64,000 bases of DNA from Plasmodiophora brassicae (taxonomy: Eukaryota), in NCBI GenBank assembly GCA_036867785.1, contig CP145409.1, positions 1,302,001 through 1,366,000 on the forward strand, written 5' to 3'. The position numbers were made by a program, and so were the translations under genes. The notes below the pieces were generated by a model. That model worked only from the letters and a program-made list of their open reading frames with translations, ran no database searches and was not told the DNA's origin. Shown one piece after another: positions 51,401 to 51,881 of the stretch. Position 1 is the stretch's first letter, and the number at the start of each line of letters is the position of its first letter.

Positions 51401-51881
51401 ACGCTGTACGGCTGTCGCCGAGTCCATAGACGTTGCTCAGGTCAAGCCAGGCGGTCGCATCGTTCTTGCCCTGGAGATACCCATTGGAGGTGTTCGATGC
51501 ACTATGCCGCGTGAAAGGGATTGTCTTTGTGCCCGTGCAGTTGGGATCCAGGCCGAACCCCATATCGCATCGCGGGACTTGAATATTGAAGCTGTGGTTA
51601 GACGAGACCAGCATGGACATGTCGCTGGCCAGGAATTGGCCATAGTTCGAGAACAAGGAGCTAACGCCGCTGTTGATGTTGAACTGGAACGGTGCCGTGA
51701 ACACGACGTCAGAGATGAACCGGGCATTGTCCCGGTTCGGGCCGGCCGGCCCTGACACGTTGTCCGCGTACGCTTGTGGAGCGGAGACGAACTCGAGCGG
51801 TTGCAATGTCGTTCCCCAGGTCGGGTGGTCCGGGTTCGCATTGTACCCGTCCATCGGACGGTATCGGGGCGGCGACGCCAT
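48429..51881 (-). CDS. Heme peroxidase-DOMON-class C 7TM GPCR-coiled-coil fusion, paralog B (7 exons)
   Basis: Same motifs, order and intron positions as paralog A: GQFLASD, AAFRYGHS, QMAGAD..QHG, CAWRLFLSSTGFTLVFSILLGKLYRY, and tail KLKAEILQMEAE. Confidence 0.85.

Follow-up and report, generated by a model that had tools for sequence, protein, structure and literature searches.

Tail-to-tail paralogs of Plasmodiophora brassicae encoding putative peroxidase-DOMON receptors of the class C type, one of which carries Ser in place of the distal His of the peroxidase site

The stretch of DNA analyzed here (the window) comprises 64,000 nucleotides of Plasmodiophora brassicae contig CP145409.1 (assembly GCA_036867785.1), from positions 1,302,001 to 1,366,000 of the forward strand, and all coordinates given below refer to this window. 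The window is eukaryotic in character, with short GT..AG introns and a G+C content of ∼59%, and it harbors two related genes, designated paralog A and paralog B, which are tail-to-tail duplicates. A (+) and B (-) are convergent neighbors, and their DNA is 74% identical across 3.1 kb (blastn). The coding sequence of B, including the stop codon, is located at 48429..51881 (-) and consists of the RNA-supported exons 51881-51099, 51037-50735, 50680-50294, 50233-49597, 49541-49312, 49252-48826, and 48763-48429. The joined exons give an intact open frame of 1033 amino acids (aa), the product of which is identical to a protein (P0159) found under three NCBI accessions, where it is named hypothetical protein PBRA_002166 or [quoted passage not shown] The coding sequence of A (44021..47563, +, including the stop codon; 1056 aa) was modeled by homology to B with seven exons (44021-44803, 44879-45181, 45247-45633, 45692-46325, 46378-46607, 46669-47095, and 47157-47563) and canonical GT..AG introns. 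Three of its six introns were found to be spliced out in the RNA contigs of run X17, and the other three are predicted. The six introns occupy matching positions in A and B, exons 1, 2, 3, 5, and 6 are equal in length, and the two proteins show 66% identity, with ∼34% of the residues differing. Both proteins start with a Met five residues before the conserved RYRPMDGYN. In the start regions of A (44006-44023) and B (51881-51896), each ATG is preceded, at a distance of five codons, by an in-frame stop.

Domain analysis revealed that each gene encodes an An_peroxidase domain, a DOMON domain, a seven-transmembrane (7TM) domain of the class C G-protein coupled receptor (GPCR) type, and a C-terminal helix. 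In B, the An_peroxidase domain (aa 7-500; 50207..51863 including introns, -) was matched by Pfam PF03098 with 413 bits against a cut-off of 25 over profile positions 1-530 of 530, the DOMON domain (aa 531-648; 49763..50116, -) by PF03351 with 58.5 bits against a cut-off of 32.7, and the class C 7TM domain (aa 687-933; 48732..49648 including introns, -) by 7tm_3 with 70.5 bits against 33.5 over profile positions 6-251 of 251. When A was analyzed by exon open reading frame (ORF), Pfam matches were obtained for An_peroxidase (191.6, 55.2, and 137.9 bits), for DOMON, and, below the cut-off, for 7tm_3 (E = 4.9e-5). No Venus-flytrap (ANF_receptor) or Cys-rich domain was found by Pfam in P0159, in which An_peroxidase and DOMON are the only matches N-terminal to the 7TM part, and NOX-type ferric-reductase, FAD, or NADPH domains and EF hands likewise gave no Pfam match. 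A first-pass annotation, made from the sequence letters and the translated open reading frames, missed the class C GPCR-type receptor and DOMON context, in which the peroxidase domains form part of an ectodomain and are not free enzymes.

Tertiary structure prediction of B using AlphaFold2 with a 34-sequence alignment gave a predicted local distance difference test (pLDDT) value of ∼90 in the peroxidase and DOMON domains and positioned Ser86 in helix 76-88. The 7TM part was modeled with low confidence, and the alignment contained no relatives in that part. The model also showed a long C-terminal helix (aa 985-1032; 48435..48578, -) that is conserved in the tail of A (47414-47560); in both tails, the helix of ∼48 residues follows a divergent linker. 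Foldseek comparison of the B model with solved structures gave a target-normalized template modeling (TM) score of 0.91 and a root-mean-square deviation of 1.9 Å for the peroxidase of Cyanobacterium TDX16 (8s6c), and a TM score of 0.89 for Dictyostelium DdPoxA (6erc). These closest solved folds share 36% and 31% sequence identity with B, with phmmer E-values of 9e-86 and 4e-71, respectively. Hydropathy analysis of B showed seven hydrophobic helices, and the Lys plus Arg residues were concentrated on the alternate loops and the tail that would be internal (3, 4, 3, and 5-6, versus 0-1 on the outer loops). Owing to this distribution, the N-terminal 680 residues of B would face outside according to the positive-inside rule. 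The DOMON exon showed no sequence match in the PDB even at E <= 1. The DOMON Trp, Met, and His-Gly were invariant in A, B, and five relatives. The Met and His are presumably heme ligands, as in cellobiose dehydrogenase and CYBDOM proteins, and the DOMON domains of A and B probably carry heme b.

The residues of the peroxidase pocket were mapped by alignment to the cyanobacterial peroxidase 8s6c, DdPoxA (6erc), and myeloperoxidase (12cl). The catalytic and heme-binding residues of the superfamily are the distal Gln-His-Arg and the proximal His-Asn-Arg, as described in the available text of PMC5787809. In A, the sequence at 44261-44281 (+), GGC CAG TTC CTG GCG CAC GAC, encodes GQFLAHD, with the distal His86 specified by CAC at 44276..44278 (+). 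In B, the corresponding motif at 51621..51641 (-), read as the reverse complement GGC CAA TTC CTG GCC AGC GAC, is GQFLASD, with Ser86 specified by AGC at 51624-51626 (-). Ser86 aligned under the distal His of all three structures, within the motifs WGQFLDHD (8s6c), WGQFLIHN (6erc), and WGQLLDHD (12cl), and the change from CAC to AGC involves two bases. The distal triad of a competent peroxidase is present in A (Gln-His86-Arg) but not in B, where it reads Gln82-Ser86-Arg205 (Gln82 at 51636-51638, -; Arg205 at 51267-51269, -). Removal of the distal His is known to slow the formation of compound I by orders of magnitude.

The remainder of the pocket is largely common to the two proteins, which share the segments FLAGDPRCN(I/L)N and AAFRYGHSS. 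Both possess the distal Gln, the Ca2+-ligand Asp following the distal His position, the distal Arg, the proximal His (His298 in B, 50927..50929, -), and the proximal Arg. The acids that link heme covalently in enzymes of the myeloperoxidase/lactoperoxidase type, i.e., an Asp beside the distal His and a Glu three residues after the distal Arg, are missing in A and B: the Asp column contains Ala in both, and the Glu column contains Ile in A and Leu in B (Leu208, 51258-51260, -). The Asn of the proximal triad, in the segment AAVDIQRGRD, is replaced by Asp in both proteins, while Asn is present in 88% of 236 full-length homologous domains. The Ser of the Ca2+ site, found in 97% of the family, is kept in B and replaced by Asn in A (residue 149, 44465-44467). 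The motif pair GQFLAHD/GQFLASD and its two codon positions had been reported in the first-pass annotation and were borne out by reading both strands; the structure alignments agreed with its further statements that both proteins keep the distal Arg (GDPRCN) and the proximal His (FRYGHS) and that both lack the ester-forming acids.

The rarity of the Ser was assessed with a homologue set comprising the best 150 of 5462 matches from 1.84 billion representatives, together with earlier matches. Among the 182 aligned domain rows, 162 covered the distal His column, and the residue was His in 154, Ser in 2, Asn in 2, and Gly, Asp, Gln, or Leu in 1 each. The two rows with Ser were B's own allele and a degenerate domain also devoid of the Arg; Ser combined with a retained Arg and an otherwise intact pocket was seen only in B among the aligned rows. 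In a larger aligned set, the combination Ala-Ser-Arg-Leu was found only in B, the commonest combination being D-H-R-E (222 rows), and the distal His was kept in all five DOMON-linked relatives covering the column. Since the combination in B is unique in the aligned set and these five relatives keep His, the Ser is, as judged from the homologues, derived in B after the duplication. Among the 48 positions conserved in at least 95% of the 236 full-length domains, only H86S and G441S were lost in B alone and only S149N in A alone. The structure alignments and the homologue columns indicate that the active-site asymmetry proposed in the first-pass annotation is real, derived, and specific. A decayed, B-like pseudo-copy of exon 1, limited to its 5′ part, was also detected by blastn between the 3′ ends of A and B (47600..47925, -). 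It is 67% identical to B and 60% identical to A, with 40 indel columns and three shifting frames, and no cover by the RNA-like runs was seen in the 47616-48203 bins. The ancestral codon (His or Ser) was sought in this pseudo-exon, where the alignment was too decayed to be read.

Expression of B was evaluated with the contigs of runs X15, X17, and X19, from three studies, which were taken as RNA because their contigs show spliced joints; none of the matching runs is on record as RNA. All six introns of B were absent from the contigs of all three RNA-like runs and retained in the DNA run X13. Across 51099-52300, the RNA contigs of X15 and X19 showed one and zero differences, respectively, the single difference in X15 being at 52054, and thus the Ser codon is present in the spliced RNA contigs of both runs. 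One RNA contig terminated in a run of T at 48355, which hints weakly at a poly(A) site. In X15 and X19, A had only fragmentary cover while B was assembled whole, and both genes were transcribed in X17; contig depth is unable to rank genes, and no A/B expression ratio was drawn. In 12 DNA runs from four studies, 99-100% of the sampled words were present (1.00 in ten and 0.99 in two); all 12 runs are flagged as possible sources of this DNA and do not constitute independent support. A second allele, P0009 (A2S, A128T), retains GQFLASD and is tied to the ∼2%-divergent lineage of X13 by a shared S855C.

These data bear on the explanation that the Ser reflects a sequencing error or a private allele, or that B is an unexpressed pseudogene, possibilities that had been raised along with the first-pass annotation. 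The decayed third copy of exon 1 shows that copies at this locus can die. B, however, was spliced at six introns in every RNA-like run, its Ser was found in the RNA contigs of X15 and X19 as well as in the second allele, three NCBI accessions carry the identical protein, the 1033-aa ORF is intact, and none of the 12 indels listed (of 15) for the divergent lineage was coding. An artefact or a pseudogene is refuted by the RNA contigs, the second allele, the accessions, and the intact ORF, and a dying gene is hardly credible.

The pairwise ratio of non-synonymous to synonymous divergence (dN/dS, Nei-Gojobori NG86) between A and B, a calculation proposed with the first-pass annotation, was 0.25 over the full alignment and 0.21 for the peroxidase domain; dS was 0.85. 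At the positions conserved in at least 80% of the 236 homologous domains (n = 133), B kept 103 and A kept 96 residues; at those conserved in at least 95% (n = 48), B kept 41 and A kept 42. At the sites where A and B differ, the family consensus agreed with B at 46 and with A at 16 (binomial p = 2e-4), which corresponds to 46 lineage-specific changes in A and 16 in B. Comparison with 11 single outgroup domains gave more lineage-specific changes in A in nine cases, an equal number in one, and fewer in one, with p < 0.05 reached in four. In the X13 lineage, all of the 12 listed indels (of 15) were intronic or intergenic, and 71% of the stretch is coding. As B retains more of the conserved residues, has fewer lineage-specific changes, shows a dN/dS of 0.21 in its peroxidase domain, and has no listed coding indels, the sequence comparison indicates that B is not decaying but evolves under purifying selection and would, if anything, be the more conservative of the two.

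Homology searches returned no protein at 42-99% identity to B, and a 50%-cluster library gave only B's own cluster. Plasmodiophorid orthologues were not found in these searches and are possibly inside B's own 50% cluster or missing from the collections. The nearest full-length relatives are peroxidase-DOMON fusions with 30-39% identity to B. Pfam analysis of these showed the peroxidase-DOMON pair joined to cytochrome b561 in P0001 (Goniomonas), P0007, and P0275, and to both cytochrome b5 and an FAD/NAD reductase in P0022 (from the chytrid Borealophlyctis) and P0163. The fusions resemble A and B in the peroxidase-then-DOMON order, the frequent lack of the ester-forming Asp, and the invariant DOMON Met and His. 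They differ in having a C-terminal cytochrome b561, or b5 plus reductase, in place of 7tm_3, in retaining the distal His where the column is covered, and in a peroxidase domain starting at residue 21-39, with room for an N-terminal extension that is missing in A and B. Owing to the fusion with electron-transfer modules in the relatives and the invariant DOMON Met and His-Gly, the peroxidase-DOMON pair is, by homology, a redox unit, and comparison of the architectures indicates that in P. brassicae the GPCR domain replaces the electron-transfer membrane partner. The occurrence of such fusions in protists and a chytrid suggests a membrane or flavin-fed peroxidase family, on which no paper was found.

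A second protein combining peroxidase, DOMON, and 7tm_3 was not obtained in the homology searches or among the ESM Atlas leads, which comprised 7tm_3 clusters (0.85) and a peroxidase plus DOMON cluster (0.78). Among the papers accessible to a literature search, none was found on a peroxidase-DOMON-7tm_3 receptor or on PBRA_002166, and the main text of the P. brassicae genome paper does not mention GPCR, peroxidase, or DOMON.

Comparison with known systems revealed partial likeness to several of them. DUOX proteins similarly carry an ectodomain of the An_peroxidase fold on a multi-pass membrane protein, and human DUOX1 (PDB 7d3e) has Ser at the distal His column (HVLSD, compared with FLASD in B). 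This is in agreement with the comparison to DUOX made in the first-pass annotation. According to the available text of PMC4654585, the peroxidase-homology domain of Duox is regarded as having no efficient peroxidase function, and Drosophila Duox lacks both histidines. B differs from the latter in retaining the proximal His, and from DUOX in general in that the membrane part of DUOX is a NOX-type heme/flavin oxidase with EF hands, no DOMON is present, and sequence identity with B is only ∼22-27%. DdPoxA also lacks the ester-forming Asp and has Ile-100 at this position (available text of PMC5787809). Unlike the putative receptor ectodomains of A and B, however, DdPoxA and the TDX16 peroxidase are soluble, and their Gln-His-Arg triad is intact and accompanied by at least one ester-forming Glu; both acids are missing in A and B, and in B the His as well. 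PXDNL, a paralogue of an active peroxidase, is described in the available text of PMC8533639 as having no peroxidase activity and, like B, has been retained, but it belongs to the extracellular matrix of animals and has neither a membrane nor a receptor part. With class C GPCRs, B shares a 7tm_3 match above the cut-off, a large N-terminal domain predicted to face outward, and a long C-terminal helix; peroxidase and DOMON domains stand in place of their Venus-flytrap and Cys-rich domains. Class C GPCRs act as dimers, and in the GABA-B receptor two different chains pair asymmetrically through C-terminal coiled coils. The A/B pair resembles GABA-B R1/R2 in that the two chains are paralogs whose ligand or catalytic sites are not equivalent.

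The account that we favor, at somewhat less than an even chance, is that B is an expressed and constrained receptor whose peroxidase site lacks its catalytic base, with an ectodomain that binds or senses, while A keeps the triad. After the duplication, B would have exchanged the distal base His86 for Ser while retaining the rest of the pocket (Gln82 and Arg205, His298 and the Arg on the proximal side, and the Ca2+ site). The result would most probably be an inability to cleave H2O2 to compound I at enzyme rates, leaving B peroxidase-dead or strongly crippled, with the ectodomain maintained by selection as a folded heme-type module. The ectodomain of B could then bind or sense on behalf of a GPCR-type transducer, with peroxide, a small heme ligand, or a redox partner being bound and not turned over. 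It would face the parasite's exterior, and hence the host cytoplasm during the plasmodial stage. Peroxide turnover may persist in A, and a partnership of A with B would not be needed. The intact frame, splicing, transcription, and apparent purifying selection of B fit the first-pass view of a dead catalytic base in a still-constrained heme-type domain. Of the parts of this account, the residue and constraint analyses support a peroxidase site that is dead or crippled within a constrained heme-type domain, and what we infer from the sequence is that B binds heme, has lost its activity, plays a sensing role, and has the topology described.

Several observations weigh against this account. Both heme binding and loss of activity are deduced from residues in an alignment. 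As the ester-forming acids are missing from both proteins and Asp replaces the proximal Asn, A may itself be unconventional and the His less important than assumed. No signal peptide was found in the A or B models, and the first 40 residues contain no hydrophobic stretch; the RNA contigs are colinear with the genome upstream of B. Yet the topology rule predicts the large N-terminal part to be outside, and the outward localization is therefore tentative. The dS of 0.85 means that the pairwise dN/dS averages both lineages, and the A model is partly inferred. The visible polymorphisms had a non-synonymous to synonymous ratio of 7:8 in B and 4:17 in A (Fisher p = 0.14), as counted from 40 of 164 difference rows with none in B's peroxidase domain, and some relaxation of the C-terminal half of B may have occurred.

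Among the alternatives, a minority possibility that is unlikely but attractive by analogy is that A and B depend on each other as the two chains of a single class C dimer, similar to GABA-B R1/R2, with a catalytic A and a non-catalytic, heme-binding B perhaps joined by their C-terminal helices; this division of labor had been suggested in the first-pass annotation. Both proteins carry 7tm_3, the domain of a receptor class that works as dimers, both tails end in the conserved helix, the genes are adjacent and tail to tail, both are transcribed in X17, and their losses are complementary, although small (His86 in B and the Ca2+-site Ser149 in A). However, the division of labor is reasoned by analogy, homodimers would explain the conserved tails equally well, and the assembly of A in short pieces as against the whole of B in two of the three RNA-like runs gives a hint, and only a hint, of uncoupled expression. 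Complex prediction for the C-terminal helix of A (P0308, 78-134) with that of B (P0159, 975-1033), run with no controls, gave a score of 0.18 against a mark of 0.34, which speaks neither for nor against an association. An elaboration of this dimer, which we consider quite unlikely, would be a GABA-B-like receptor with a two-heme redox module in which one chain turns peroxide over and the other holds it or reports the redox state, through which the parasite would read host H2O2 or ascorbate; by analogy with the relatives, the source of the module would be an ancestral electron-transfer protein of the peroxidase-DOMON-cytochrome b561 type, from which it was captured by a swap of the membrane part.

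It is also unlikely that B is still an enzyme with altered chemistry, performing another heme reaction or a slow but useful peroxide reaction with Ser, Gln, Arg, and the DOMON heme. A working active site would be expected to hold almost every conserved residue of the fold under constraint, as is seen in B, the two-step change from CAC to AGC, fixed in both known lineages, is compatible with an adaptive switch, and the fusion of peroxidase-DOMON to electron-transfer modules in relatives points to a redox unit. On the other hand, the retention of His in all five DOMON-linked relatives covering the column and the drop in compound I formation that follows its removal argue against such chemistry, as does the lack of a fused electron-supply module in the P. 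brassicae versions. The proposal that neither ectodomain uses heme chemistry, both being structural, adhesive, or ligand-binding as proposed for peroxinectin-type proteins, with the change of His to Ser neutral, is very unlikely. It would accommodate the absence of the ester-forming Asp and Glu and the Asp for the proximal Asn in both proteins, and the greater distance of A from the family consensus. Yet the proximal His, the heme-side Arg, and the distal Gln and Arg are present in both proteins, A also keeps the distal His, and the DOMON Met and His are invariant; such retention across a dS of 0.85 is hard to explain without heme.

Among the neighboring genes of the window, the divergent neighbor of B (51977-54583, +) is an 869-aa open frame with an SH3 domain. 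The RNA contigs containing the whole B mRNA continue colinear into this gene across 51882-52300. The 5′ ends of the two genes are ∼150-250 bases apart, and their transcripts may overlap or the genes may have a common promoter region. At 54628-56214 (-) lies a single open frame with an unusual pairing of isochorismatase and 2-oxoglutarate-Fe(II) (2OG-Fe(II)) oxygenase domains. The open frame at 41409-42866 (-) contains long Ser/Arg/Pro repeats (SRSPSQSRSPS...) and adjoins exons with a MIF4G domain (40278-41535, -). Elsewhere in the window, two actin genes (9546-10814, -, and 19503-21107, +; Pfam Actin 494 and 351 bits) lie ∼9 kb apart, and the interval contains an IFT46 gene (14149-15048, -) as well as a WD40 gene.

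Dead homologues of heme peroxidases are known, such as the DUOX domains and PXDNL, and their roles are mostly unclear. P. brassicae offers a matched pair in one genome, 66% identical and of one architecture, in which the catalytic base differs and the "dead" copy is better conserved and clearly expressed; the A/B pair is thus a clean system for asking what the peroxidase fold does without its histidine. The view that B is a pseudo-peroxidase of the DUOX or PXDNL kind placed in an undescribed receptor architecture is partly supported by the present comparison. P. brassicae is the agent of clubroot, which is a major disease in Brassica, and its surface receptors are of practical interest, as a GPCR-pathway inhibitor lessened clubroot symptoms according to the available text of a review (PMC9180986). 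The combination of peroxidase, DOMON, and class C GPCR domains encoded at this locus suggests a heme- or redox-sensing receptor.

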